Assembly: GCF_988242995.1 (NCBI RefSeq)
Contig: NZ_OZ547043.1
DNA length: 64,000 nt
Strand: one strand, 5' to 3'
The notes beneath the pieces were generated by a model that worked only from the letters and a program-made list of their open reading frames with translations, was not told where the DNA came from and ran no database searches. Positions 9,752 to 37,219 of this stretch are shown in pieces. A program made the position numbers and the translations under genes. Within the stretch, counting starts at the first letter, position 1. Every line of letters begins with the position of its first letter.

Positions 9752-11000
9752 GGGAGTTCTACCGCAGGGGCGGGGAATTCTAAGTGATATCCATCATCGC
9801 ATCCAGTGCGTCCGGTTTATCCCCGCTGACGCGGGGAACACGCTTTTCCCCACGCGTCCAGATCTTCGACTGGCGGTTTATCCCCGCTGGCGCGGGGAAC
9901 ACTCATTAAATTGTTTTTCCCGATCCCAGCTCTGCGGTTTATCCCCGCTGGCGCGGGGAACACCTGGAGCGCAGAAAGTTTGATATCGAAAATGCCGGTT
10001 TATCCCCGCTGGCGCGGGGAACACAGTTAACAACCCGCGCCGAACAAGCCCGACAACGGTTTATCCCCGCTGGCGCGGGGAACACCAGGTTCGTAAAGGT
10101 GAACACGGCACGACGGCCGGTTTATCCCCGCTGGCGCGGGGAACACGCGTCGCCATTCTATTAGCTTTTCCTCATCACCGGTTTATCCCCGCTGGCGCGG
10201 GGAACACCCGACAATCTCCGCCTCCAGTCGGTCGACCTGCGGTTTATCCCCGCTGGCGCGGGGAACACTGTGCCCGACTGCGTGCCGCGTCGAGCGCCTG
10301 CGGTTTATCCCCGCTGGCGCGGGGAACACTTCGCCGCCATCATCCTGTGGTGCCAGTTGACCGGTTTATCCCCGCTGGCGCGGGGAACACATACCGCAGC
10401 AAATTACGGTTCCAGAAACGCGCGGTTTATCCCCGCTGGCGCGGGGAACACTGACACGTTAAACGGTGCGTTGTCGTCGCTGTCGGTTTATCCCCGCTGG
10501 CGCGGGGAACACCCTGCCGCCCCCTTTAGCCCATATGGGGGCGGCGGTTTATCCCCGCTGGCGCGGGGAACACTTCAACATTACGAAACGGGATCACGCC
10601 GCTGACGGTTTATCCCCGCTGGCGCGGGGAACACCGGCTCCGCGTCGACATAAAAGTCCTCGGGATCGGTTTATCCCCGCTGGCGCGGGGAACACATATT
10701 TCGCCCCGTCACGCTGAATCAGCCAGCCGGTTTATCCCCGCTGGCGCGGGGAACACTCGCTTTTAAAGCGCCGGAGGAAAGTAAGCTCCGGTTTATCCCC
10801 GCTGGCGCGGGGAACACTAGCATAAATTACCCGATCAGATCGCGGACATCGGTTTATCCCCGCTGGCGCGGGGAACACTCGATCAAAAATTTACAACCAA
10901 AGGCTTCAACCGGTTTATCCCCGCTGGCGCGGGGAACACTCCCCGGTATCAGAAATAATTCCCTGCTCGATCGGTTTATCCCCGCTGGCGCGGGGAACAC
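9752..11000 (-). CRISPR. CRISPR array, type I-E repeats, 21 repeats and 20 spacers
   Basis: 29 bp repeat CGGTTTATCCCCGCTGGCGCGGGGAACAC with exact 61 bp period, starts at 9813, 9874, ... 10972; all spacers 32 bp. Repeat at 9813 has one mismatch (CTGACGCG). A degenerate terminal repeat sits at 9752-9780 (about 19/29 matches). Leader is on the right, so crRNA is read on the minus strand. Confidence 0.98.
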
Positions 11001-25348: not shown

Positions 25349-26620
25349 ATGGAAGACGACTGCGACATTATTATTATTGGTGCGGGTATAGCAGGCACCG
25401 CTTGTGCTTTACGCTGCGCGCGGGCAGGTTTGTCCGTTCTGTTACTGGAACGCGCTGAAATCCCCGGCAGCAAAAATCTTTCCGGCGGGCGTTTATACAC
25501 CCATGCGCTCGCGGAACTCCTCCCGCAATTTCATCTGACCGCGCCTCTTGAACGACGCATCACTCACGAAAGCCTTTCTCTGCTAACGCCGGATGGCGCA
25601 ACGACGTTTTCCAGCTTACAGCCCGGCGGTGAATCCTGGAGTGTATTACGTGCACGGTTCGATCCGTGGCTGGTTGCCGAAGCCGAAAAAGAAGGTGTCG
25701 AATGCATCCCTGGTGCGACGGTGGATGCGCTGTATGAAGAAAACGGCAGGGTGTGTGGTGTCATTTGTGGTGACGATATTCTCCGCGCCCGTTATGTGGT
25801 GCTGGCAGAAGGTGCCAACAGCGTCCTGGCTGAACGTCACGGGTTAGTGACTCGTCCTGCTGGCGAAGCGATGGCGTTGGGGATCAAAGAAGTGCTGTCG
25901 CTGGAAACATCCGCTATTGAAGAACGTTTTCATCTGGAGAATAACGAAGGCGCAGCGTTGCTGTTCAGCGGCGGGATCTGTGATGACTTACCCGGCGGCG
26001 CATTTCTTTATACTAATCAACAAACGCTCTCGTTAGGGATTGTTTGCCCGCTCTCTTCCCTTACGCAAAGTCGTGTTCCGGCAAGCGAGCTGCTGGCTCG
26101 CTTTAAAACGCATCCGGCAGTGCGCCCGCTTATCAAAAACACGGAATCACTGGAGTATGGTGCGCATCTGGTGCCAGAAGGTGGCTTGCACAGTATGCCG
26201 GTGCAATACGCCGGTAACGGCTGGCTGCTGCTGGGCGATGCGTTGCGCAGTTGCGTCAATACCGGAATTTCCGTGCGCGGCATGGATATGGCGCTAACTG
26301 GCGCGCAGGCGGCGGCACAAACGCTGATAAGCGCCTGCCAGCACCGCGAGCCGCAAAATCTGTTTCCGCTTTATCATCACAACGTCGAGCGCAGCCTGCT
26401 ATGGGATGTTCTACAACGTTATCAGCATGTTCCGGCGCTTTTGCAACGCCCTGGATGGTACCGTGCGTGGCCTGCGTTAATGCAGGATATTTCCCGCGAT
26501 TTATGGGATCAGGGTGATAAACCTGTTCCACCGCTGCGCCAGTTATTCTGGCGTCATTTACGTCGTCACGGCCTGTGGCATCTGGCGGGCGATGTTATCA
26601 GGAGTCTGCGATGTCTGTAG
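25349..26620 (+). CDS. ygcN: FAD-dependent ETF-quinone oxidoreductase-like protein (FixC family)
   Basis: ORF track 25319..26620; internal start MEDDCDIIIIGAGIAGTACAL gives a Rossmann GxGxxG N-terminus (423 aa). The upstream alternative start is possible. Confidence 0.85.
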   Translation: MEDDCDIIIIGAGIAGTACALRCARAGLSVLLLERAEIPGSKNLSGGRLYTHALAELLPQFHLTAPLERRITHESLSLLTPDGATTFSSLQPGGESWSVLRARFDPWLVAEAEKEGVECIPGATVDALYEENGRVCGVICGDDILRARYVVLAEGANSVLAERHGLVTRPAGEAMALGIKEVLSLETSAIEERFHLENNEGAALLFSGGICDDLPGGAFLYTNQQTLSLGIVCPLSSLTQSRVPASELLARFKTHPAVRPLIKNTESLEYGAHLVPEGGLHSMPVQYAGNGWLLLGDALRSCVNTGISVRGMDMALTGAQAAAQTLISACQHREPQNLFPLYHHNVERSLLWDVLQRYQHVPALLQRPGWYRAWPALMQDISRDLWDQGDKPVPPLRQLFWRHLRRHGLWHLAGDVIRSLRCL

Positions 26621-26871
26621 CCCGTAATCTCTGGCGCGTTGCCGATGCGCCGCACATTGTTCCGGCTGACTCCGTTGAGCGCCAGACGGTACAACGGTTG
26701 ATTAACGCTTGTCCGGCTGGTCTTTTTTCGCTCACACCGGAAGGTGACTTACGCGTTGATTATCGCGGCTGCCTGGAGTGTGGCACCTGCCGTTTGCTGT
26801 GCGACGAATCAACACTACAACAGTGGCGCTATCCGCCTTCCGGATTCGGCATCACCTACCGTTTTGGATAA
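26611..26871 (+). CDS. ygcO: Ferredoxin-like protein (FixX family)
   Basis: ORF track 26575..26871; start set at MSVARNLW (86 aa); overlaps ygcN end. Confidence 0.85.
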   Translation: MSVARNLWRVADAPHIVPADSVERQTVQRLINACPAGLFSLTPEGDLRVDYRGCLECGTCRLLCDESTLQQWRYPPSGFGITYRFG

Positions 26872-26887
26872 ATAATAAGGATAATTT

Positions 26888-27463
26888 ATGCCCCTCTTAC
26901 ACCTGCTCCGCCAGAATCCGGTGATTGCTGCCGTTAAAGATAATGCCAGCCTGCAACTGGCAATCGACTCTGAATGCCAGTTTATTTCCGTGTTGTACGG
27001 CAATATCTGCACCATTAGTCAAATCGTTAAAAAGATTAAAAATGCCGGAAAATATGCTTTTATTCATGTTGATTTGCTGGAAGGCGCGTCAAATAAAGAA
27101 GTGGTGATTCAGTTTTTGAAACTGGTGACTGAGGCGGACGGCATTATCAGTACCAAAGCCTCAATGTTGAAAGCGGCAAGAGCGGAAGGTTTTTTCTGTA
27201 TTCATCGCCTGTTTATTGTTGATTCAATTTCGTTTCACAACATTGATAAGCAAGTTGCGCAATCGAATCCGGATTGTATTGAGATCCTGCCAGGCTGTAT
27301 GCCTAAAGTGCTGGGCTGGGTGACGGAGAAAATCCGCCAACCGCTGATTGCCGGCGGGCTGGTGTGCGATGAAGAAGATGCGCGTAATGCGATTAACGCA
27401 GGTGTCGTGGCGCTTTCCACCACAAATACCGGGGTCTGGACGCTAGCGAAAAAATTGCTTTGA
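26888..27463 (+). CDS. ygcP: GlpP-family putative transcription antiterminator
   Basis: ORF track 191 aa, recognised as the GlpP-like (glycerol-3-phosphate responsive antiterminator family) protein YgcP. Confidence 0.85.
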   Translation: MPLLHLLRQNPVIAAVKDNASLQLAIDSECQFISVLYGNICTISQIVKKIKNAGKYAFIHVDLLEGASNKEVVIQFLKLVTEADGIISTKASMLKAARAEGFFCIHRLFIVDSISFHNIDKQVAQSNPDCIEILPGCMPKVLGWVTEKIRQPLIAGGLVCDEEDARNAINAGVVALSTTNTGVWTLAKKLL

Positions 27464-27499
27464 CGGGATAATCGTAACGAATTGAATTTGTGTGATTTG

Positions 27500-27609
27500 T
27501 AGGCTGCACGCCACATCCGACATTCAGCGCCTGATGCGACGCTTGACGCGTCTTATCAGGCTTACAAGTCCCCAAGCCAGAACCGTAGGCAGGATCATCC
27601 GGCAGCACG
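27500..27609. repeat. Cluster of REP-type palindromes (BIME-like) between ygcP and ygcQ
   Basis: Central unit GCCTGATGCGACGCTTGACGCGTCTTATCAGGCTTACA (about 27529-27566) flanked by two weaker REP-like units. Confidence 0.7.
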
Positions 27610-28470
27610 TTATTGGCAATCTGCGTGAATGGTTGTCACCAGTGCCTCCAGCACCGCTTTCCAGTCATCAACCACGCCAACATCTGCCTGTGAAAATACC
27701 GCTGCACTGGCGTCATGATTAATCGCCACCACAAACTTGCTATTGCGTACGCCCGCCATTAACGCTGCTGCGCCGGAAGCGCCAACGACAATACACACCT
27801 CAGGTGCCAGCAGATGTCCAGAAATACCAATCACTTTTTCGGCATCAACGCCACCATTCATCACTCGTGCCCGACTGTAGCCCACTTCGGCTCCCAGCTT
27901 TTCTGCCAGCATAGCGATTTCCTGGTTATCTGCCTCTCCGCCCTGCCCCACCACCAGCACCCGTCTGGCCTCAGCTAATGGGTCACGGGTAACATTTTTC
28001 AGATCCTCTGTGCTAACCAGCCAGTCGGGAAGCGCGCCGGGGACAATGTTCAGTTGCTGCATACCAGAGGGCAATGTGGCGTTTTTCACTGCTCCCGCCT
28101 GGCGGGCAAGGGAAAGGCATAGCGGGCGTTTTTCTGTTTGCAGCGTCGCCGTTAGCGCATTTCCCCAGTGGGATTTGCGCACGCTTACGGTTGAAATATC
28201 TAACGAAGTCACCTGGCAGATGCTTGCACCATGTAAACGCCAGGCCAGCCGGGTCGACAGTTCATCACCAAACGTTCCCGGCGGAAAGAGAACAACGTCC
28301 GCTGGCGTTCGCTGCCACTGTTCCACCAGCGCATCCAGCACCTGTTCCGCCACTACGGGCTGAGGTTCAATCTGCCAGTGTGCCAGGGTACAACCGCTGA
28401 AATCCTGTTCTGCCAGCCAGCTCGCTATTGCGGCATTCTCCTGATTTATTGTCACAATTGCGATATTCAT
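27610..28470 (-). CDS. ygcQ: Electron transfer flavoprotein alpha-subunit-like protein (FixB family)
   Basis: ORF track 27610..28503; start set at MNIAIVTINQ (286 aa) to give the usual 4 nt overlap with ygcR. Confidence 0.85.
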   Translation of the reverse strand: MNIAIVTINQENAAIASWLAEQDFSGCTLAHWQIEPQPVVAEQVLDALVEQWQRTPADVVLFPPGTFGDELSTRLAWRLHGASICQVTSLDISTVSVRKSHWGNALTATLQTEKRPLCLSLARQAGAVKNATLPSGMQQLNIVPGALPDWLVSTEDLKNVTRDPLAEARRVLVVGQGGEADNQEIAMLAEKLGAEVGYSRARVMNGGVDAEKVIGISGHLLAPEVCIVVGASGAAALMAGVRNSKFVVAINHDASAAVFSQADVGVVDDWKAVLEALVTTIHADCQ

Positions 28471-29246
28471 GGCTGCATCCTTTGGCGTAAATAGTCCTGC
28501 CATAGCTTTTGCGCTTTTTCTGCTACCGTTTGCCCATCAATCAGCGTCGCTCCGCGTTGTTGCTCTGCTCTTGCCAGTTGCAGACACTGCATCGCTGGCG
28601 ATTCGGCAGCAACAGTTTTACGGATAATTGCTGCTTTCCCCGCCGCCATTCGCTGACGCATTCCCGGTACTGGCAAGGCCACTTCACCGCACTGACGCAC
28701 GGCAATCACCGCAGGCAAGCGAACCCGGCAACAGCGCAGCCCGTTTTCAGTACGCTGTTCGAGGGTGATAAACAGCGCGTCGAGAGTGAAACGCTCCACC
28801 TGGGTGAAGCAGGGCCAGCCCAGCATTTCCGCCAGCAAAAATGGCGTTTGCCCATTCTGCCCTTCGCTGCTTTGGCAGCCGGTAATTATCAGATCCAGCG
28901 GATTCTGACGCTGCCATTCGGCAATATGGCGAGCGACAAATTCCGGCGCAAAGCGCAGATCTGCCGCCGTCTCCAGTAATACAGCTTCCTCAAACCCAAG
29001 AGCCATGAGATAGCGCAGCCAGTGCAACGCCCGTTCATCCCCCATGCTCAACGCGGTTAAAGACATCGACGTACCGTTTTTTCTCTGCGTCAACAGCAGC
29101 GCGGCGGCAGCCTGTTCATCAGCACCGAGTAAACTTCGCAGAAGCGAAACATCCGGTCCGCTATTACCCTGAGCCGCCGCCTGCCACTCTTTTTCCGCCA
29201 GCATTCCGGCATCCGGTTCGGCTTTAAACGCTAACAGAATGTTCAT
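28467..29246 (-). CDS. ygcR: Electron transfer flavoprotein beta-subunit-like protein (FixA family)
   Basis: ORF track 28467..29252 (261 aa); start at first or third Met. Confidence 0.85.
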   Translation of the reverse strand: MNILLAFKAEPDAGMLAEKEWQAAAQGNSGPDVSLLRSLLGADEQAAAALLLTQRKNGTSMSLTALSMGDERALHWLRYLMALGFEEAVLLETAADLRFAPEFVARHIAEWQRQNPLDLIITGCQSSEGQNGQTPFLLAEMLGWPCFTQVERFTLDALFITLEQRTENGLRCCRVRLPAVIAVRQCGEVALPVPGMRQRMAAGKAAIIRKTVAAESPAMQCLQLARAEQQRGATLIDGQTVAEKAQKLWQDYLRQRMQP

Positions 29247-30561
29247 TCGCACCTCCTACATTTCCCGCCGCCACCAGCGGGAGTGCTTTGGTTTCTGGTG
29301 CCCATAGCCAGGTCACGACAAAACCAACCAACAACACTGCCGCCAGGAGCAATAAGGTGACTTGCATTCCCCACTGCGCCAGCACCCACGGCAGCAGGCC
29401 AGTACTTACCGCCGCCCCCAACCGACTCATGGCGGTGGCAAAACCGACGCCCAGCGAGCGAATGTCAGTAGGAAAACTTTCCGCAGGCAAAATGCCCACC
29501 AGATTACTGACTGCCGAAATGGTGGTGCTGAAGAGAACAAAAAGCAGCAGCGTTAATGAACTGCCGGAAGGCAAACAGGCCATCACTACCAGCGTTGCCG
29601 CCAGCAGCAAAAAACTTCCCAGCAAAAATTTGCGATGTGCCAGCAGGTGCGTCAGAACTAATCCCAGCAGCGCGCCAACAATTAACAACGCATTAAGCAT
29701 CAGGCTGGCGGTCAGCGCATCTTCCAGACCAATAGTTTGGGCAATGGTAGGCAGCCAGGTATAAATCACAAACCATGGGATTACGAGGCAGACAAAGAAG
29801 ACGCTGTTAAACGCCGTGCGCCGCCAGTAGCGCGAAGAGAACAAGGTTTTGATGTGTTTATGGGTCGCCGTTGCCACTTCATCGCCCAGTAAAACATGGG
29901 GACCAAAATAGCGATGCACGATAGCGTGAGCTTCTGCAAAACGCCCCTGGCGCAGTAGCCAGCGTGGCGATTCTGGCGTTCCCCAGCGTAATAACGTAAT
30001 CAACAACGCGGGCAGAGCTGCCGATGCCAGCAGCCAGCGCCAGGCCTCCGGGCTTTCGCTAATAAAGTGATGTCCGGCAATACTTGCCAGCACATAGCCT
30101 ACGGTCCACACCACACTGAATGCGCCCAGCAAAATACCGCGATGGCGGCGCGGGGAAAATTCAGCCAGCAAGGTGTGACCGACTGAGTAATCGCCTCCCA
30201 GACCAATGCCGATCAAAATGCGTAGTCCAATAAGATGCTCTGGCGTGGTGGCAAAAAATTGCAAGAACGAAGCGAGCGTAATCAGCAAAAAGCTGAAGGT
30301 GAAGATTTTTTGCCGACCAATATAGTCGGAGATCCACCCCAAAACCAGGCTACCGATAAACAGGCCAAGTAGCGCCGAGCCGCCAATCATTCCCGCCATA
30401 AACGGCGTCAGTTGCATGGCGGGCGTAAGCTGAATAATGGCGTAACCAATGACGCCGAGAACATAACCGTCGGTCAGGTGCGCGCCGAAAGTGAGCGCAG
30501 CAATTCGACAGTGAAAACGGTTAAGCGGTAAATCATCCATTCGCACCGGTGAAGTGTTCAT
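29224..30561 (-). CDS. ygcS: MFS transporter (sugar-porter type)
   Basis: ORF track 29224..30633; start set at MNTSPVRMDDLPLNRFH (445 aa); multiple TM helices. Confidence 0.85.
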   Translation of the reverse strand: MNTSPVRMDDLPLNRFHCRIAALTFGAHLTDGYVLGVIGYAIIQLTPAMQLTPFMAGMIGGSALLGLFIGSLVLGWISDYIGRQKIFTFSFLLITLASFLQFFATTPEHLIGLRILIGIGLGGDYSVGHTLLAEFSPRRHRGILLGAFSVVWTVGYVLASIAGHHFISESPEAWRWLLASAALPALLITLLRWGTPESPRWLLRQGRFAEAHAIVHRYFGPHVLLGDEVATATHKHIKTLFSSRYWRRTAFNSVFFVCLVIPWFVIYTWLPTIAQTIGLEDALTASLMLNALLIVGALLGLVLTHLLAHRKFLLGSFLLLAATLVVMACLPSGSSLTLLLFVLFSTTISAVSNLVGILPAESFPTDIRSLGVGFATAMSRLGAAVSTGLLPWVLAQWGMQVTLLLLAAVLLVGFVVTWLWAPETKALPLVAAGNVGGANEHSVSV

Positions 30562-30591
30562 CTTTACCCCTTCATTGTCCGGTAATAAGAA

Positions 30592-30613
30592 CGGCTTCTC
30601 GCCTGAGAAGCCG
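30592..30613 (-). terminator. Intrinsic-terminator-like hairpin between ygcU stop and ygcS start
   Basis: Perfect 9 bp stem CGGCTTCTC / GAGAAGCCG with 4 nt loop; on the minus-strand RNA it is followed by UUCUUAUU. Confidence 0.5.
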
Positions 30614-30654
30614 AAAAGGCAACGCTCCGTCATCGCGGAACGCTGCCTGACACA

Positions 30655-32109
30655 TTATTTTTCAATCGGATAGATAGTACCCGTATTCATAATGCCGTTA
30701 GGATCGAACTGCTTTTTCAGCCCTTCCAGCAACGCCCACGCGCTGCCGTGTTCCAGCTTGCTCCAGTGAACGCGATGTTTACCAATGCCGTGGTGGTGCA
30801 CCATCGAACCACCGAGGCGAATGGTTTCTTCGCAGATGATTTTGTTGAGCGGATTGTGGTACTTGTCGATTTCCTCTTCCGGCTTACAGTCAACGACGTT
30901 GTAGTCGTAGACGAAGTACATGTTGGTGCCGTTCTGGTAGCTATGAGAGGAGTGACCGCCCAGCATGGTGATGTCGTCGGCGTGCGGGAACTCGGTACGA
31001 ATACGGTTAATAACGCTTTCGTAGATTTCGTGGATGCAGCTCCAGCAGCCGGACACTTCGGTGGTAAAGCCCATGTTGCCGGTTTTGAGGATCTGCACAC
31101 GTTCAGCGGCCACTTTATCCGGCCCCCAGTTCAGGTGATTAAACCAGGTTTCGATCAGCTTGCTGTCCACTCGCTGGCATTGCGGGTAACGTGCCACGAT
31201 TTCCGCAATCCCTTCGCCTGTCGCCTTCGCAATGCGAGGGTTGCCTTCAGCCATAAAGATCAGCACACATTTACCATCGGCAAAATGGGTGAAGTGTTGG
31301 GTGCCATCTTCAGCGTCATACAAACGAGCGATCGACGGACGATACCCTTCCACCATGATTTCACGCAGGATGTTGAAGCCGGTTTTCATGTCTTCCAGGA
31401 TATAGCCGTAGAAGAGGTTGTTTTCCGGGGTGAACTTAAAGATTTTCACAGTTACTTCAGTGATATAGCACAATGCACCTTCGTTGCCGATGATGATGTG
31501 ACGAATGTCCGGGCCTGCCGCGCGGCGTGGTACGTTTTTAATGCGTGTTACGGTGCCATCAGCCAATACTGCTTCCAGACCAACGACCATATCTTCGATT
31601 GCGCCGTAGAGTGTGGAGAACTGCCCGATACTGCGGGTTGCTACCAGGCCGCCCATCTGCGCCAGCGGCTTTGACTGCGGAGAATGCCCCGTGGTGTAAC
31701 CTTTTTCACGCAACGCGTTTTCCAGCACTTCCAGCAGAACTCCGCATTGCGCCGTGGCCTGCATATTCTCAATATCAATATTAATGATTTGATTCATGGC
31801 AGAGCCGTCGAGCACCACCGAGTTTTCCACAACGGTTTCCAGCCCACCTTCGGTAGCGGAAGCACCGGTACGCGGCACACCGTTAATTTTGTGCGCATTC
31901 ATAAAATTCAGCACACGGGATACTTGTTCTGTGGAACCGAGTTTTACGACCGCTGCCGGAATCGGCAAAGTATAAATGCCATGAATATCCGGAAATTTGC
32001 GAAAACGGTCAATACTGTTCTTCTTTAATACTGTTTCATCGGTAATTACGCGATCTGCACCAACAATTTCCTTTAGCTGGTCGACAATCGCTGCGCGAGA
32101 TAAAGACAT
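30655..32109 (-). CDS. ygcU: FAD-linked oxidoreductase (alkyl-DHAP-synthase / D-lactate dehydrogenase-like)
   Basis: ORF track 484 aa with FAD-binding PCMH-type N-terminal half. Confidence 0.88.
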   Translation of the reverse strand: MSLSRAAIVDQLKEIVGADRVITDETVLKKNSIDRFRKFPDIHGIYTLPIPAAVVKLGSTEQVSRVLNFMNAHKINGVPRTGASATEGGLETVVENSVVLDGSAMNQIINIDIENMQATAQCGVLLEVLENALREKGYTTGHSPQSKPLAQMGGLVATRSIGQFSTLYGAIEDMVVGLEAVLADGTVTRIKNVPRRAAGPDIRHIIIGNEGALCYITEVTVKIFKFTPENNLFYGYILEDMKTGFNILREIMVEGYRPSIARLYDAEDGTQHFTHFADGKCVLIFMAEGNPRIAKATGEGIAEIVARYPQCQRVDSKLIETWFNHLNWGPDKVAAERVQILKTGNMGFTTEVSGCWSCIHEIYESVINRIRTEFPHADDITMLGGHSSHSYQNGTNMYFVYDYNVVDCKPEEEIDKYHNPLNKIICEETIRLGGSMVHHHGIGKHRVHWSKLEHGSAWALLEGLKKQFDPNGIMNTGTIYPIEK

Positions 32110-32178
32110 AGTAATTCCTTCCTGATAATAAAAATGGAATAATCATTAATAAGAGAAAACAGAAACCACCGTTATGGA

Positions 32179-32964
32179 TTAGCGCACTAAATAACCGCCA
32201 TCAACCACTAATAAATGTCCGTTGACATAATTCGATGCCGGACTTGCGAGGAATACGGCTGCGCCCATTAAATCCTGAGTATCGCCCCAACGGTTTGCCG
32301 GAATATGATCAAGAACGCGCTGGTTAGTTTCTGGATTACTACGGGTCGCCAGAGTGATATCGGTAGCGTAATATCCCGGAGCAATACCATTTACCTGAAT
32401 ATTATATTGACCTAGTTCATCACAATAAGCTTTGGTGAACCCGGCAAGAGCATGTTTAGTGGCAGAATATGCAGGTGACCATTGTCCACCTAAGTAAGAG
32501 AATAATGAACAGATATTAATGATTTTACCGCTTTTCTGCGGGATCATAATTTTTGCAGCTTCATAGCTTAACTCGAATGCGGCGGTCAGGTTCACATCAA
32601 TCATCGGGTCCCAGTCGGCACGACCGAAGTCCAGCACCTTATTCAGCTTACAAATACCGGCATTGTTAATCAGAATATCGACGGTACCGAAACGTTCGCA
32701 ACAGGCGGCGATTATCTTCTGCGGCGCGCCTTCTGCGGTGATATCCACCTGCATGAAGTCCACCTCAACACCCTGTTTTTCAATCATTTCCTTTGTTTCG
32801 CCGTTATCTTTAACGAAGCTTGGAATAAAGATATTTGCGCCTGCTTTGGCCAGCGCCATGGCAAATGCCTGGCCTAAACCGCTATTCCCGCCGGTAACAA
32901 TTGCGGTTTTACCTTTCAGGGAGAAAAAATCCATTGAGAACGCATTGAGAGATTCGATTGACAT
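32179..32964 (-). CDS. ygcW: Short-chain dehydrogenase/reductase
   Basis: ORF track 32179..33039; start set at MSIESLNAFSMDFFSLKGKTAIVTGGNSGLG (261 aa). The longer ORF would translate straight through an obvious terminator hairpin and A9 tract. Confidence 0.88.
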   Translation of the reverse strand: MSIESLNAFSMDFFSLKGKTAIVTGGNSGLGQAFAMALAKAGANIFIPSFVKDNGETKEMIEKQGVEVDFMQVDITAEGAPQKIIAACCERFGTVDILINNAGICKLNKVLDFGRADWDPMIDVNLTAAFELSYEAAKIMIPQKSGKIINICSLFSYLGGQWSPAYSATKHALAGFTKAYCDELGQYNIQVNGIAPGYYATDITLATRSNPETNQRVLDHIPANRWGDTQDLMGAAVFLASPASNYVNGHLLVVDGGYLVR

Positions 32965-32988
32965 AGTTAGCTCCAATTTCCGTAAGGC

Positions 32989-33036
32989 AAAAAAAAAGAA
33001 AGGTAACTTCCCCCGCGAGAGGGAAGTTACCTTTCT
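32989..33036 (-). terminator. Strong intrinsic-terminator-like hairpin plus U8 in the ygcW 5' leader
   Basis: Perfect 16 bp stem (32997-33012 pairs with 33021-33036), 8 nt loop CCGCGAGA, then on the minus-strand RNA eight U (plus A-run 32989-32996); ends 24 nt upstream of ygcW ATG. Confidence 0.7.
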
Positions 33037-33088
33037 CATTATCTCTGGTAACTGGAGATAATTTTTATCATAAGGGCATAATCGCTAA

Positions 33089-33104
33089 TGTGATCGTAAT
33101 CACA
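33089..33104. promoter_or_regulatory. Candidate CRP binding site in ygcW/yqcE divergent region
   Basis: TGTGATCGTAATCACA, a perfect TGTGA-N6-TCACA palindrome. Confidence 0.6.
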
Positions 33105-33210
33105 GTGTGATATTCGAATTGTCAAATAATTTTAAAAAGCAGAAGCGTGATTACTCTCACACAACACCACTACTTTCCATGTTATTTCTTATTGCAATTA
33201 CTAGAGACCT

Positions 33211-33258
33211 GAGAAAAGTAATCCACCTGAAAGGGCGGCTTACTTTTCTCTTTTTTTT
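33211..33258 (+). terminator. Intrinsic-terminator-like hairpin plus T8 in the yqcE 5' leader
   Basis: Perfect 11 bp stem GAGAAAAGTAA / TTACTTTTCTC with 18 nt loop, followed by TTTTTTTT (33251-33258); ends 24 nt upstream of yqcE ATG (33283). Confidence 0.65.
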
Positions 33259-33282
33259 GTCTATTACAAATGGGAATACGAT

Positions 33283-34560
33283 ATGCAACACAACTCATAT
33301 CGCCGTTGGATAACCCTCGCGATAATTAGTTTTAGCGGCGGCGTTAGTTTCGACCTGGCTTATTTACGTTATATTTATCAAATTCCCATGGCGAAATTTA
33401 TGGGATTCAGCAATACCGAGATAGGTTTAATAATGAGTACCTTTGGTATTGCGGCTATTATTCTTTATGCCCCCAGCGGCGTTATTGCCGATAAATTTTC
33501 ACACCGCAAAATGATTACTTCCGCGATGATCATTACCGGATTACTGGGTCTGTTAATGGCAACATATCCACCGCTGTGGGTAATGCTCTGTATTCAGGTC
33601 GCCTTTGCGATAACGACGATTTTAATGCTGTGGTCGGTGTCGATTAAAGCCGCCTCGTTGCTGGGCGATCATAGCGAGCAAGGGAAAATTATGGGCTGGA
33701 TGGAAGGGCTGCGCGGCGTCGGTGTAATGTCGCTGGCGGTGTTTACCATGTGGGTCTTTTCTCGCTTTGCACCGGATGACAGCGCCAGCCTGAAAACGGT
33801 CATTATTATCTATAGTGTGGTTTACATTCTGCTGGGCATTTTGTGTTGGTTTTTTGTTAGCAATAACAACAACCTGCGCAATACCAATAACGAAGAAAAA
33901 CAGTCATTCCAGCTTAGCGACATCCTGGCCGTTTTGCGCATCAGCACCACCTGGTATTGCAGCATGGTGATTTTTGGTGTCTTCACCATCTACGCCATTC
34001 TGAGTTACTCCACCAACTATCTGACCGAAATGTACGGCATGTCGCTGGTGGCGGCGAGCTACATGGGGATTGTGATCAACAAAATCTTCCGCGCACTGTG
34101 CGGACCACTTGGTGGCATTATCACCACCTACAGCAAAGTGAAATCCCCTACCCGCGTGATCCAAATCCTTTCCGTACTCGGCTTACTGGCGTTAACTGCC
34201 CTGCTCGTCACGAACTCTAACCCGCAATCGGTCGCGATGGGGATTGGCCTGATTTTACTGCTGGGATTCACCTGTTACGCCTCACGCGGGCTGTACTGGG
34301 CCTGCCCTGGCGAAGCGAGAACACCGTCTTACATTATGGGCACCACGGTAGGTATTTGTTCGGTGATTGGATTCCTGCCGGATGTCTTCGTTTACCCGAT
34401 TATCGGCTACTGGCAAGACACCCTGCCCGCTGCAGAAGCCTACCGCAATATGTGGCTGATGGGCATGGCGGCGCTTGCCATGGTGATCGTCTTTACCTTT
34501 TTGCTGTTCCAAAAAATTCGTACTGCTGATAGCGCCCCTGCTATGGCTAGCAGCAAGTAA
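33283..34560 (+). CDS. yqcE: MFS transporter
   Basis: ORF track 425 aa, 12-TM-like hydrophobic profile. Confidence 0.88.
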   Translation: MQHNSYRRWITLAIISFSGGVSFDLAYLRYIYQIPMAKFMGFSNTEIGLIMSTFGIAAIILYAPSGVIADKFSHRKMITSAMIITGLLGLLMATYPPLWVMLCIQVAFAITTILMLWSVSIKAASLLGDHSEQGKIMGWMEGLRGVGVMSLAVFTMWVFSRFAPDDSASLKTVIIIYSVVYILLGILCWFFVSNNNNLRNTNNEEKQSFQLSDILAVLRISTTWYCSMVIFGVFTIYAILSYSTNYLTEMYGMSLVAASYMGIVINKIFRALCGPLGGIITTYSKVKSPTRVIQILSVLGLLALTALLVTNSNPQSVAMGIGLILLLGFTCYASRGLYWACPGEARTPSYIMGTTVGICSVIGFLPDVFVYPIIGYWQDTLPAAEAYRNMWLMGMAALAMVIVFTFLLFQKIRTADSAPAMASSK

Positions 34561-34586
34561 GTCCAGAAAATTACAGGAGAAAAATC

Positions 34587-36065
34587 ATGTCGAAAAAATA
34601 CATCATAGGGATTGATGGTGGAAGTCAGAGCACAAAAGTGGTGATGTACGATCTGGAAGGTAATGTGGTTTGCGAAGGCAAAGGCTTATTGCAGCCGATG
34701 CACACGCCAGATGCCGATACCGCAGAACATCCTGACGACGATTTATGGGCATCATTATGCTTTGCCGGTCACGATTTGATGAGTCAGTTTGCCGGAAATA
34801 AAGAAGATATTGTCGGTATTGGTCTGGGATCCATCCGTTGCTGCCGTGCGTTATTGAAAGCCGATGGCACGCCAGCTGCGCCGTTGATTAGCTGGCAGGA
34901 TGCACGCGTTACACGCCCTTACGAACATACGAATCCTGACGTGGCATATGTCACCTCTTTTTCAGGTTATCTGACGCATCGCTTAACCGGCGAGTTTAAA
35001 GACAATATCGCCAACTATTTTGGTCAGTGGCCGGTGGATTATAAGACCTGGGCATGGAGTGAAGATGCCGCAGTCATGGAGAAGTTTAATATCCCCCGTC
35101 ATATGCTGTTTGATGTGCAAATGCCGGGCACTGTTCTTGGGCATATCACTCCTCAAGCCGCGCTGGCGACACATTTCCCGGCTGGGCTGCCGGTTGTTTG
35201 TACCACCAGTGATAAACCGGTTGAAGCACTGGGAGCTGGGTTACTGGATGATGAAACGGCGGTAATTTCTCTTGGCACTTACATCGCGCTGATGATGAAC
35301 GGCAAAGCACTGCCGAAAGATCCGCTGGCGTACTGGCCGATTATGTCTTCTATTCCGCAAACATTGCTGTATGAAGGTTACGGTATCCGCAAAGGCATGT
35401 GGACGGTGAGCTGGCTACGCGACATGCTAGGCGAGTCGTTAATTCAGGATGCCAAAGCACAGGATCTTTCACCGGAAGATTTACTCAACAAAAAAGCGTC
35501 TTGTGTGCCGCCAGGCTGTAATGGTCTGATGACGGTGCTGGACTGGCTGACCAATCCGTGGGAACCGTACAAACGCGGGATTATGATCGGCTTTGATTCC
35601 AGCATGGATTACGCATGGATATATCGTTCGATACTGGAAAGCGTGGCGCTGACGCTGAAGAACAATTTCGACAATATGTGTAATGAAATGAATCACTTTG
35701 CAAAGCATGTGATCATTACTGGCGGCGGTTCGAACAGCGATCTGTTTATGCAGATTTTTGCCGACGTGTTCAACCTTCCGGCACGCCGTAACGCCATTAA
35801 TGGTTGTGCAAGCCTGGGGGCAGCGATTAATACGGCGGTAGGTCTGGGGCTATACCCGGATTACGCAACGGCTGTCGACAAAATGGTTCGCGTGAAAGAT
35901 ATCTTTATGCCTGTTGAGAACAATGCCAAACGCTACGACGCGATGAATAAAGGCATTTTCAAGGAGTTAACCAAACATACTGATGTAATCCTGAAAAAAT
36001 CGTATGAAGTGATGCATGGGGAATTGGGGAATGCGGATTCGATCCAGAGCTGGTCGAATGCGTAA
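34587..36065 (+). CDS. ygcE: FGGY-family carbohydrate kinase
   Basis: ORF track 492 aa, N-terminal IGIDGGSQSTKVV (FGGY kinase signature). Confidence 0.88.
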   Translation: MSKKYIIGIDGGSQSTKVVMYDLEGNVVCEGKGLLQPMHTPDADTAEHPDDDLWASLCFAGHDLMSQFAGNKEDIVGIGLGSIRCCRALLKADGTPAAPLISWQDARVTRPYEHTNPDVAYVTSFSGYLTHRLTGEFKDNIANYFGQWPVDYKTWAWSEDAAVMEKFNIPRHMLFDVQMPGTVLGHITPQAALATHFPAGLPVVCTTSDKPVEALGAGLLDDETAVISLGTYIALMMNGKALPKDPLAYWPIMSSIPQTLLYEGYGIRKGMWTVSWLRDMLGESLIQDAKAQDLSPEDLLNKKASCVPPGCNGLMTVLDWLTNPWEPYKRGIMIGFDSSMDYAWIYRSILESVALTLKNNFDNMCNEMNHFAKHVIITGGGSNSDLFMQIFADVFNLPARRNAINGCASLGAAINTAVGLGLYPDYATAVDKMVRVKDIFMPVENNAKRYDAMNKGIFKELTKHTDVILKKSYEVMHGELGNADSIQSWSNA

Positions 36066-36111
36066 GTGAGGAAGACCGGGCGGGAAACTGCCCGGCCTGA
36101 ACATACCTGAA

Positions 36112-36249
36112 TGGTTATCCCCGCTGGCGCGGGGAACATAAGTTCGACAACTTAAAAAATGATAACAAGTCCGGTTTATCCCCGCTGATGCAGGGAACAT
36201 AATAAAAACTTTAACTAGTTCGGTTTATCCCTGTTTTTACAAGGAATAT
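36112..36249 (-). CRISPR. Degenerate CRISPR remnant (3 decayed repeats)
   Basis: TGGTTATCCCCGCTGGCGCGGGGAACAT, CGGTTTATCCCCGCTGATGCAGGGAACAT and CGGTTTATCCCTGTTTTTACAAGGAATAT, separated by 32 bp and 20 bp. Confidence 0.75.
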
Positions 36250-36702: not shown

Positions 36703-37219
36703 TGGTTTATTCCCGCTGGTGCGGGGAACTCATCAGTGATATCCAACATTGCGGAGCTAAACGCGGTTTATCCCCGCTGGCGCGGGGAACTCAATTAGCC
36801 CGCCTCGCGCGGGTTTTTTTGTGCCGGTTTATCCCCGCTGGCGCGGGGAACTCTTTACTTATCTGCAAATATTTTTTGTCAGCTGCGGTTTATCCCCGCT
36901 GGCGCGGGGAACTCACGAACGCGGCACACCAGGGCGTCTCATCGTCCGGTTTATCCCCGCTGGCGCGGGGAACTCGAACACGACAGGAGTGATAAATGTA
37001 CGCACATCGGTTTATCCCCGCTGGCGCGGGGAACTCGGCTGATAGTGCTTCTGATTATTCGGCGCAAGCGGTTTATCCCCGCTGGCGCGGGGAACTCTAG
37101 GACCCAATATAAAACCGACTGGTTATTTTCGGTTTATCCCCGCTGGCGCGGGGAACTCTTTCAGTCTGGAACACAACGGCGTTAAATAACCGGTTTATCC
37201 CCGCTGGCGCGGGGAACTC
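36703..37219 (-). CRISPR. Orphan CRISPR array, type I-E repeats, 9 repeats and 8 spacers
   Basis: Repeat CGGTTTATCCCCGCTGGCGCGGGGAACTC, period 61 bp, starts 36703 (degenerate distal repeat, 3 mismatches), 36764 ... 37191; 32 bp spacers; leader on the right; no adjacent cas genes. Confidence 0.97.

Follow-up and report, generated by a model that had tools for sequence, protein, structure and literature searches.

The stretch of DNA considered here, referred to as the window, comprises 64,000 nucleotides of contig NZ_OZ547043.1 (NCBI RefSeq assembly GCF_988242995.1), and its positions 25349-36065 carry the E. coli-type ygc locus, in which ygcN-ygcO-ygcP lie on the plus strand, ygcW, ygcU, ygcS, ygcR and ygcQ are transcribed in that order from the minus strand, and yqcE-ygcE again occupy the plus strand. 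The two divergent operons beginning with ygcW and yqcE appear, from their sequences, to share a new leader RNA in which a strong terminator is set against a weak, covarying antiterminator, and the GlpP-family protein YgcP is very likely the antiterminator that acts on both leaders. The flavoenzyme YgcU has the alkyl-dihydroxyacetone phosphate (DHAP) synthases, known as AGPS, as its closest solved relatives. With a confidence that falls a little short of even, the locus may be read as a catabolic island that is inducible and in which a redox module is an optional addition to a conserved core; it would be controlled by CRP and YgcP antitermination and directed at a 1-substituted glycerol, the substituent X of which is probably of the trimethylammonium type.

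The two leaders have a common layout which includes a 5'-terminal A(G/A)UUAC(Y) segment, a purine-rich AGAGA...GAGAAA tract, a long hairpin, and a final U8-9, and their terminators end about 25 nt upstream of the ATG. The A[G/A]UUAC[Y] segment is complementary to the 5' arm of the terminator, [R]GUAA[Y]U. In the ygcW leader the terminator folds at -34.2 kcal/mol (z-score -6.3) against -6.7 kcal/mol for the antiterminator, and in the yqcE leader the corresponding values are -22.3 kcal/mol (z-score -4.1) and -1.4 kcal/mol. In a hand-anchored alignment of 58 leaders from more than 40 genera, pairing in the terminator helix reaches 88.8%, and nine of its pairs have changed on both sides. For the 7-bp antiterminator helix the figure in the same alignment is 95.6%, as against 15-52% when it is slid by 1-3 columns. 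One of its pairs is GC in 43 leaders, AU in 15, and unpaired in none, while another is UA in 38 and CG in 16. The helix is absent from the covariance model's own structure, and the model-based alignment of 110 distinct sequences has it 93.1% paired (slid controls across both alignments, 15-54%). Firmicute leaders add further compensatory changes, namely UUGC with GCAA or GCGA.

The covariance model scores the ygcW leader at 84 bits and the yqcE leader at 74 bits. It finds exactly two leaders in each complete Enterobacterales locus and only these two in the window; the region upstream of ygcN, where the motif was also looked for, has none. A comparison of 32989-33258 with Rfam 15 at E values up to 1 gave no family match. 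An earlier note on this DNA, made from its letters and open reading frames (the sequence-only reading), had placed hairpins in every gap between transcription units. Those in the divergent gap are the leader terminators and that in the ygcP/ygcQ gap is a repetitive extragenic palindrome (REP). The one at 30592-30613 (minus strand) is internal to the minus-strand unit, downstream of ygcU and upstream of the true start of ygcS (30561).

YgcP matches the Pfam family PF04309 (G3P_antiterm) over its full length (residues 1-173 of 173, 1.6e-62) and the solved GlpP structures 3kts of Listeria (8.5e-28) and 1vkf (8e-15). It accompanies the leader motif in each phylum sampled, and the two co-occur in Enterobacterales, Photobacterium, Sporomusa, Clostridia, Enterococcus, and metagenomic Firmicutes. 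The targets of B. subtilis GlpP combine a promoter and a GlpP site with a terminator in their 5' untranslated region (PMC9604022). Likewise, the short 5' leader of each ygc operon contains a conditional intrinsic terminator, with covariation in the 110 distinct sequences. It is this match in architecture, together with the conservation of the leaders, that argues for YgcP as the antiterminator of both. The GlpP-like regulator of the sequence-only reading has thereby acquired matching cis-elements in its two target operons.

The regulatory model to which sequence, structure, and covariation point is as follows. Two back-to-back CRP-dependent promoters would drive ygcW-ygcU(-ygcS-ygcR-ygcQ) and yqcE-ygcE. 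By default the leader would fold into the strong intrinsic terminator, the antiterminator helix being too weak alone. YgcP loaded with a phosphorylated intermediate of the pathway would then stabilise this helix, or otherwise sequester the terminator arm, and allow read-through in the manner of B. subtilis GlpP at glpD, glpFK, and glpTQ. The likeness to the B. subtilis glp regulon includes the regulator family (PF04309), the order of promoter, short leader with intrinsic terminator, and genes, the split of the targets into an operon of transporter plus FGGY kinase and a flavoenzyme operon, and a global catabolite signal on top. However, the ygc host is Gram-negative and its catabolite signal is CRP and not CcpA, the flavoenzyme is AGPS-like and not GlpD, and a short-chain dehydrogenase/reductase (SDR) and optional electron-transfer flavoprotein (ETF) genes are added; further, the YgcP ligand is unlikely to be plain glycerol-3-phosphate, and the ygc leader has no Rfam entry. 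BglG/SacY antitermination, where a ribonucleic antiterminator (RAT) hairpin opposes a terminator, similarly sets a weak antiterminator, which forms only with the help of a protein, against a strong terminator whose 5' arm it overlaps. Unlike BglG and SacY, YgcP comes from an unrelated family with no CAT or PRD domain, and it presumably responds to a small phosphorylated ligand rather than to phosphorylation by the phosphotransferase system.

The divergent spacer between ygcW and yqcE is 318 bp long and contains two CRP-type palindromes. Matches to the CRP consensus with at most one mismatch number 5 in the 64-kb window against 1.76 expected. From extended -10 elements conserved across genera, transcription is predicted to start near 33055 (ygcW) and 33195 (yqcE), which would put the CRP sites at about -41.5 in both operons. 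The TCTCACAC half-site of CRP site 2 is kept in Citrobacter, Klebsiella, and others, and the length of the spacer, both CRP sites, and both leaders are kept across genera. The yqcE-ygcE operon is listed as CRP-activated (PMC8085971), and PhyloScan has a top-ranked predicted CRP site between ygcW and yqcE, which corresponds to CRP site 1 (PMC1794230). RNA polymerase binds the spacer, which is also flagged as H-NS-associated in genomic SELEX tables (PMC3946193, PMC5493296). The CRP control at which the sequence-only reading had hinted is supported by the two sites and by the activation reported for yqcE-ygcE. In Limnobaculum eriocheiris (L037, 3085-3162), the spacer measures just 130 bp and both leaders overlap as a single bidirectional terminator without the upstream AGUUACY segments, which may be a degenerate or differently regulated variant.

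YgcU had been labelled a generic FAD-linked oxidase, a label that has to give way to that of an AGPS-family enzyme with its catalytic residues intact. The YgcU family profile matches guinea-pig AGPS at 7.5e-61, and D-lactate, glycolate, and 2-hydroxyglutarate dehydrogenases at 1e-38 to 1e-24. A Foldseek search with an AlphaFold2 (AF2) model of YgcU returns AGPS chains at all of ranks 1-29 (TM-score 0.82, E 1e-30). In the alignment, AGPS Arg419 (ASIRLMD) corresponds to YgcU R262 (PSVARLYD), Tyr578 (ACIYFYF) to Y398 (GTNMYFVY), and His615-617 (SHHHGVGK) to H438-440 (VHHHGIGK), the AGPS numbering being fixed by the mutant PDB entries 4bc7 (Arg419His) and 4bca (Tyr578Phe) among the matches. R262, Y398, and H438-440 are invariant in 15 diverse family members. 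The GlcD score of YgcU is 145 bits against a cutoff of 568, and VHHHGIGK stands in place of the EHG motif, which keeps it apart from GlcD, LDHD, and LctD. A second FAD oxidase in the anaerobe loci, the Sporomusa paralogue, has the GlcD-type SEHGVGK; it was set aside as unrelated to the E. coli question.

AGPS is an ether-lipid enzyme that takes acyl-DHAP and puts a fatty alcohol in place of its acyl group, and it acts on DHAP bearing a leaving group at C1. YgcU has AGPS (PDB 4bby, 2uuu) as its best sequence and fold match and shares with it Arg419, Tyr578, the His615-617 loop, and the two-domain FAD-binding fold. However, it has 484 amino acids against 658 in AGPS; the alignment begins at AGPS residue 184 and region 432-523 is shortened, so that about 180 N-terminal residues and about 20 residues of the cap region are missing. 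It is also encoded, unlike AGPS, in a catabolic operon together with kinase, SDR, and ETF genes. This operon context, with its polar transporters, argues for a substrate other than acyl-DHAP and fatty alcohol, likely a small, polar or cationic one in place of long-chain acyl or alkyl compounds, and a net redox role is possible. A precedent for a complex of YgcU with YgcQ/YgcR is Ldh-EtfAB (LctBCD) of Acetobacterium woodii (PDB 7qh2), which is among the fold matches and in which a flavoenzyme of the same superfamily likewise adjoins etfB/etfA. The difference lies in the active-site motif, of GlcD type in LctD and of AGPS type in YgcU, and in the match, which is 1.5e-27 as against 7.5e-61 for AGPS.

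The distribution of the genes separates a core from an accessory module. A scan for YgcU with one genome per species gave 63 loci, which were annotated with the E. coli proteins. YgcW, YgcU, and YgcE always co-occur in these loci, and nearly all of them have YgcP as well. Both the ETF pair and the FixCX-like pair are missing in Erwinia typographi, Pantoea, Izhakiella, Ewingella, and Serratia proteamaculans/quinivorans, and the FixCX-like pair is restricted to Enterobacterales. The core proteins are 80-97% identical across Enterobacterales, and in Sporomusa and Photobacterium YgcU is still 72-73% and YgcW 76-79% identical to the E. coli proteins. YgcN, YgcO, YgcQ, and YgcR fall to 34-60% within Enterobacterales (YgcN, 50-78%; YgcQ, 34-60%), and the accessory proteins diverge 2-3 times faster than the core. 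The conserved core hence consists of the SDR, the FGGY kinase, YgcU, and YgcP, and the ETF and FixCX-like genes are accessory and fast-evolving. The genome-context comparison in other Enterobacteriaceae that the sequence-only reading had recommended thus reveals a core/accessory split with both leaders kept. The dedicated electron-transfer chain which that reading had proposed falls outside the core, as ygcQ, ygcR, ygcN, and ygcO are missing from several Enterobacterales clusters.

The pairing of yqcE with the kinase is kept in Photobacterium behind the same leader. The kinase itself occurs in two types, and that of E. coli is 73% identical to the kinase of a Clostridiales locus (L063) and 47-49% identical to those of Serratia, Rahnella, and Pantoea. 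This greater nearness to Clostridiales suggests that the kinase was replaced by horizontal transfer within an otherwise vertically conserved cluster. In one assembly of Citrobacter koseri, NCTC10786 (L011), ygcS, ygcQ, and ygcN are each broken into 2-3 ORF fragments and the core is intact, which reflects either decay of the accessory module or assembly indels. Two contigs (L006/L029) look like contamination or mis-binning, one labelled as a Planctomycetota metagenome-assembled genome with a YgcU 99% identical to that of E. coli and the other labelled Chryseobacterium sp. with a complete Enterobacteriaceae-type cluster adjoining queD.

Clues to the substrate come from the genes that accompany the cluster in other bacteria. 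A BCCT gene is located in or beside it in Sporomusa, Alkalihalobacillus, Photobacterium, SAR324, Hornefia, and Firmicutes bacterium HGW-Firmicutes-7 (L064). The leader stands directly 5' of the BCCT gene in Sporomusa and L064, and 5' of a yqcE-like major facilitator superfamily (MFS) gene in Photobacterium. The tryptophan box of the BCCT protein is partly altered in Sporomusa (WCNW), and its pattern has no match in Photobacterium. In the Clostridiales locus L063, the kinase is followed by a ProV-family ATPase (344 bits, cutoff 327) and an OsmF-like fused permease/binding protein. A metagenome scan with the Firmicute leader form gave 78 stretches, of which about 21 were confirmed by the covariance model. 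On the confirmed contigs, one leader precedes SDR-kinase-YgcU-EtfB-EtfA, and a second is followed by an OpuC/ProVWX-type operon or else by the gene for a non-pyrrolysine MttB-family methyltransferase (about 403 bits), the nearest structure of which is glycine betaine methyltransferase. Similarly, the operon of L080 has an MttB-family gene downstream of its ETF genes. The SDR is replaced in Enterococcus canis by a GldA-type glycerol dehydrogenase (444 bits, cutoff 336), which lies behind the leader. KduD, gluconate 5-dehydrogenase, and GldA all oxidise a CHOH group adjoining a terminal CH2OH. Two other genes were seen in one sampling series: a PanB-family hydroxymethyltransferase homologue (L094, 7854-8705; 335 bits, cutoff 272) downstream of a leader-controlled MttB-family gene, and a proline-racemase/hydroxyproline-epimerase-like gene (L073, 3233-4279) adjoining an ABC transporter.

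This comparative context favours a glycerol-like diol with a quaternary-ammonium-type group and makes polyols and sugar acids, among which the sequence-only reading had proposed to seek the substrate, less likely. It indicates that X carries a trimethylammonium-type group, at least in the non-enterobacterial systems. Candidate substrates would be glycerophosphocholine, which fits all the constraints, 3-trimethylammonio-1,2-propanediol, and ether-linked betaines. A 1-substituted glycerol, X-CH2-CHOH-CH2OH, would be imported by YqcE and/or YgcS and oxidised at the 2-hydroxyl by YgcW (or GldA) to X-CH2-CO-CH2OH. YgcE would then phosphorylate the primary hydroxyl to yield X-CH2-CO-CH2-OP. On this substituted DHAP, YgcU would act at C1 with AGPS-like chemistry and expel X to leave DHAP, or else form an oxidised C3 phosphate and hand the electrons to ETF. 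In the clusters that have them, YgcQ/YgcR (ETF) and YgcN/YgcO (FixCX-like) would link the flavin of YgcU to the quinone pool; the ETF may serve the reoxidation of the flavin after oxidative cleavage, a true dehydrogenase role, or the input of electrons to a reductive step. By extrapolation from the 72-79% identity of YgcU and YgcW across phyla, the pathway of E. coli probably passes through this phosphorylated intermediate too, the importer being YgcS and/or YqcE. A wider claim, doubtful as yet, is that the cluster represents an undescribed route for glycerol-linked quaternary amines, in which AGPS-type covalent-flavin chemistry, used catabolically at C1, would release a C3 phosphate for glycolysis together with the onium group, be it phosphocholine, choline, or trimethylamine, the whole being switched on by a new, phylum-spanning antiterminator RNA with its GlpP-family protein.

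Several observations weigh against the reading of the locus as an island for a 1-substituted glycerol. The E. coli cluster has MFS transporters only, with no BCCT, Opu, or MttB genes in it, and the match of YgcS to an organic-cation family is no better than its matches to aromatic-acid and sugar-porter families. YgcU also resembles ETF-coupled D-lactate dehydrogenases (E about 1e-25), and a plain dehydrogenase explains the ETF genes more simply; as AGPS itself is not a net redox enzyme, AGPS-like chemistry does not account for the ETF link. The AF2 model of YgcU (pLDDT 78, pTM 0.80) drops below pLDDT 50 around the HHH loop and is too unreliable there to support conclusions about the pocket. 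In YgcE, R84 and W103 align with GlpK R83 and W103, but the glycerol-binding E84 of GlpK is replaced by Cys. E. coli already hydrolyses glycerophosphocholine through GlpQ and UgpQ. Proteomics of Citrobacter amalonaticus on choline or carnitine lists no ygc-type proteins under the names searched, a weak objection which speaks against choline and carnitine themselves.

An unlikely alternative, in line with the sequence-only reading, is a pathway for a polyol or sugar acid. In such a pathway YgcE would phosphorylate the substrate, YgcU would be an ordinary ETF-linked dehydrogenase analogous to GlpD or LctD, YgcQ/YgcR and YgcN/YgcO would pass the electrons to quinone, and YgcW would carry out a second redox step. 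The layout parallels the B. subtilis GlpP regulon, with a transporter plus kinase operon and a flavin dehydrogenase operon; YgcU belongs to the superfamily of GlcD, LDHD, and LctD, with Ldh-EtfAB (7qh2) among its fold matches; and the ETF genes lie directly 3' of ygcU in all the anaerobe loci. YgcW is near KduD and gluconate 5-dehydrogenase, and YqcE is distant kin of the galactonate transporter type. However, YgcU has HHHG where the GlcD type has EHG, the co-located Sporomusa paralogue being of the latter type (SEHGVGK), and the catalytic Arg, Tyr, and His-His-His of AGPS are invariant in it. The ETF module is missing in many functional-looking clusters. No aldolase, isomerase, or epimerase for a C4-C6 sugar route is conserved with the cluster in the loci examined, and the linked transporters elsewhere are of quaternary-amine types and occur with an MttB-family methyltransferase.

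Less likely again is a reductive anaerobic electron sink resembling cai/fix, in which electrons would flow from quinol through YgcN/YgcO and YgcQ/YgcR to YgcU, and a phosphorylated intermediate would be reduced or cleaved, for example by removal of an onium group, in the service of redox balance and not of carbon supply. The other FixABCX-type sets of E. coli feed reductases, and FixABCX is co-induced with CaiA on carnitine (PMC12482172). YgcN and YgcO are FixC- and FixX-like, the cluster occurs mostly in facultative or strict anaerobes, some strict anaerobes have a second ETF pair with a ferredoxin domain, and BCCT transporters include substrate:product antiporters such as CaiT. On the other hand, sequence alone cannot show which way the electrons run, several lineages do without the ETF module, CRP activation together with a kinase step is typical of carbon catabolism, and a reductive product such as acetol phosphate would not be a central metabolite. 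The comparison with E. coli caiTABCDE/fixABCX itself yields a FixABCX-type electron chain tied to a quaternary-amine pathway, and, in relatives, a BCCT transporter. In contrast, the ygc cluster is devoid of CoA-transferase, CoA-ligase, and acyl-CoA dehydrogenase chemistry, cai/fix has no kinase, SDR, AGPS-like enzyme, or antiterminator, and YgcN, YgcO, YgcQ, and YgcR all score under the Fix equivalog cutoffs.

It is highly improbable that the locus is a silenced or decaying remnant in E. coli without a current physiological role. Such a state would agree with the H-NS association of the ygcW/yqcE spacer in genomic SELEX tables (PMC3946193), with truncated YgcU variants in some E. coli, with the fragmented ygcS, ygcQ, and ygcN of the Citrobacter koseri assembly, and with a literature search that found no published phenotype. 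Yet at least 80% of the region is retained in 5060 of 5426 complete E. coli genomes, with best matches of 95-99% identity in 5405 of 5431 matching records, the core proteins are 80-97% identical across Enterobacterales, and the 318-bp spacer length, both CRP sites, and both leaders are kept across genera. Searched by gene names and combinations of family names, the literature gave no study of substrate or regulation; the sequence-only reading was right to call the substrate undefined, as none was found to be published. Overexpression of YgcS raises the production of nicotinamide mononucleotide (NMN) from nicotinamide (PMC8601175), and in enterohaemorrhagic E. coli (EHEC) D-serine weakly induces ygcU, with no deletion phenotype (PMC13012123).

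The genes and the other features of the locus are listed in Table 1.

Table 1. Genes, leader RNAs, and other sequence features of the ygc locus (positions in the window)
Feature	Position	Strand	Description
ygcN	25349..26620	+	FixC-like FAD-dependent oxidoreductase, putative ETF:quinone oxidoreductase; accessory module
ygcO	26611..26871	+	FixX-like ferredoxin; accessory module; 10-nt overlap with ygcN
ygcP	26888..27463	+	GlpP-family antiterminator; predicted regulator of both leaders
REP-type palindrome	27529..27561		GCCTGATGCGACGCTTGACGCGTCTTATCAGGC; convergent ygcP/ygcQ gap; sub-threshold Rfam match to REP-derived naRNA4
ygcQ	27610..28470	-	Divergent ETF alpha-like subunit; accessory module
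ygcR	28467..29246	-	Divergent ETF beta-like subunit; accessory module
ygcS	29224..30561	-	MFS transporter; revised start 30561, 445 aa
Two tandem hairpins, ygcU-ygcS gap	30592..30648	-	30648-30617 and 30613-30592; second conserved, terminator-like/attenuating
ygcU	30655..32109	-	AGPS-family flavoenzyme, FAD_binding_4 (PF01565) + FAD-oxidase_C (PF02913); core enzyme; 484 aa
ygcW	32179..32964	-	KduD/gluconate-5-dehydrogenase-like SDR; core enzyme; 261 aa
ygcW leader RNA	32989..33061	-	Antiterminator arms 33053-33047 and 33031-33025; terminator stem 33037-33019 with 33014-32996, then U9
CRP site 1	33089..33104		TGTGATCGTAATCACA; perfect consensus; ~41.5 bp upstream of predicted ygcW start (~33055)
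CRP site 2	33146..33161		CGTGATTACTCTCACA; 1 mismatch; ~41.5 bp upstream of predicted yqcE start (~33195)
yqcE leader RNA	33188..33258	+	Antiterminator arms 33197-33202 and 33217-33222; terminator 33211-33250, then U8
yqcE	33283..34560	+	MFS transporter, distant kin of anion:cation and organophosphate transporter types
ygcE	34587..36065	+	FGGY-family kinase; core enzyme

RefSeq annotates ygcN, ygcO, ygcP, ygcQ, ygcR, ygcS, ygcU, ygcW, yqcE, and ygcE at exactly these positions. The count is ten and not eleven as the sequence-only reading had it, which itself lists ten names. Its gene-family labels agree with the NCBIfam and Pfam scans, and the family assignments bear out its picture of a coherent system of uptake, kinase, and oxidoreductase. 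The compact overlaps are likewise real, with 10 nt shared by ygcN/ygcO, an ATGA shared by ygcR/ygcQ, and 23 nt shared by ygcS/ygcR.

All the proteins of the cluster score under the curated cutoff of every named NCBIfam equivalog. For example, YgcN reaches 379 and 364 bits against the PRK10015/FixC subfamily, and YgcO reaches 84 bits against FixX (cutoff 166), of which residues 21-95 are matched. YgcO has the cysteine motif CPAG...CLECGTCRLLC (CxxCxxCxxxC, 4Fe-4S type), and YgcN/YgcO present, as predicted from their sequences, the FixC/FixX arrangement of a FixC-like flavoprotein followed by a small 4Fe-4S ferredoxin-like protein. YgcQ has weak EtfA-family matches (64-79 bits) and YgcR weak EtfB-family matches (at most 43 bits). 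Against cutoffs of 200-600 these do not amount to EtfAB/FixAB equivalogs, though the ETF fold families are still recognised. YgcS matches aromatic-acid, sugar-porter, and organic-cation transporter families, and YqcE has weak matches to TIGR00893 and TIGR00881. YgcW scores 350.1 bits against KduD (cutoff 369), which makes it a close relative that is not called KduD. YgcE has no NCBIfam equivalog (top scores XylB 143 and LsrK 141 bits); its nearest solved relatives are LsrK (2e-55) and glycerol kinases (5e-41). Both FGGY domains, N and C, are kept in YgcE, and the catalytic D209 and the Arg matching GlpK R83 are invariant. A longer ygcW ORF (286 aa, 32179-33039) was rejected as it would cross the leader terminator, the plausible start being the annotated one at 32964 (261 aa).

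The tandem hairpins between ygcU and ygcS (-39 kcal/mol, z-score -6.3) were found by a terminator scan. The stems of the second, 30613-30592, covary across genera and are usually followed by a T-run (Citrobacter, Pluralibacter, Yokenella, others). Downstream of them, the ygcS start at 30561 (MNTSPVRMDD) is conserved and has a GAAGGGG Shine-Dalgarno sequence, and the frame upstream of it is closed by stops in many genera. The 469-aa ygcS annotated from 30633 in RefSeq for some strains is therefore an over-extension; it was rejected since it traverses both hairpins, the 445-aa start being the conserved one. The conserved, covarying, terminator-like stem with its T-run implies that the minus-strand unit is probably subdivided into ygcW-ygcU, an attenuating terminator, and ygcS-ygcR-ygcQ. 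The three transcription units of the sequence-only reading would then be an undercount.

The locus is flanked by queD and a CRISPR array in the RefSeq annotation. Its alignment with E. coli chromosomes extends from one end to the other, 80% or more of it being present in 5060 of the 5426 complete genomes; the best matches are 95-99% identical in 5405 of 5431 matching records, and the highest identity to any of the 5426 complete RefSeq E. coli genomes is 98.8%. Escherichia whittamii has a 100% identical YgcU protein at a locus of only about 92% DNA identity. In the closest reference genome, E. coli AST215 (L001, 506-658), a Hok/Gef family toxin gene is annotated in the left flank between iap and cysH. 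Ten nucleotides past the ygcE stop there is a GC-rich hairpin (36076-36095, CCGGGCGGGAAACTGCCCGG) without a T-run, which may end the yqcE-ygcE unit. A pattern search of the window shows 31 copies of the type I-E CRISPR repeat GTTTATCCCCGCTGGCGCGGGGAAC in three sets, namely a 20-repeat array at 9815-10998, a degenerate 2-repeat remnant at 36113-36198 directly after ygcE, and a 9-repeat array at 36705-37217 before queE. Tandem Repeats Finder reported nothing downstream of ygcE, though the pattern search shows CRISPR repeats there.

Nearly all E. coli have the cluster, which is also widespread among bacteria of the gut, of insects, of the sea, and of sediments, and a testable role would be given to ten E. 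coli genes that have had no known function. The regulatory part, for which the in silico evidence comes near to proof, would be the first case of GlpP-type antitermination to be worked out in a Gram-negative bacterium, and its leader would be a compact, portable RNA switch of about 70 nt. Likewise, a bacterial catabolic AGPS homologue with all the catalytic residues would widen the chemistry of a flavoenzyme hitherto tied to eukaryotic ether-lipid synthesis. If the substrate is indeed a glycerol derivative bearing choline or a trimethylammonium group, the cluster would bear on the processing, by gut Enterobacteriaceae and anaerobes, of quaternary amines from the diet and the host, from which trimethylamine and trimethylamine N-oxide (TMAO) arise, and also on osmolyte turnover in marine bacteria.

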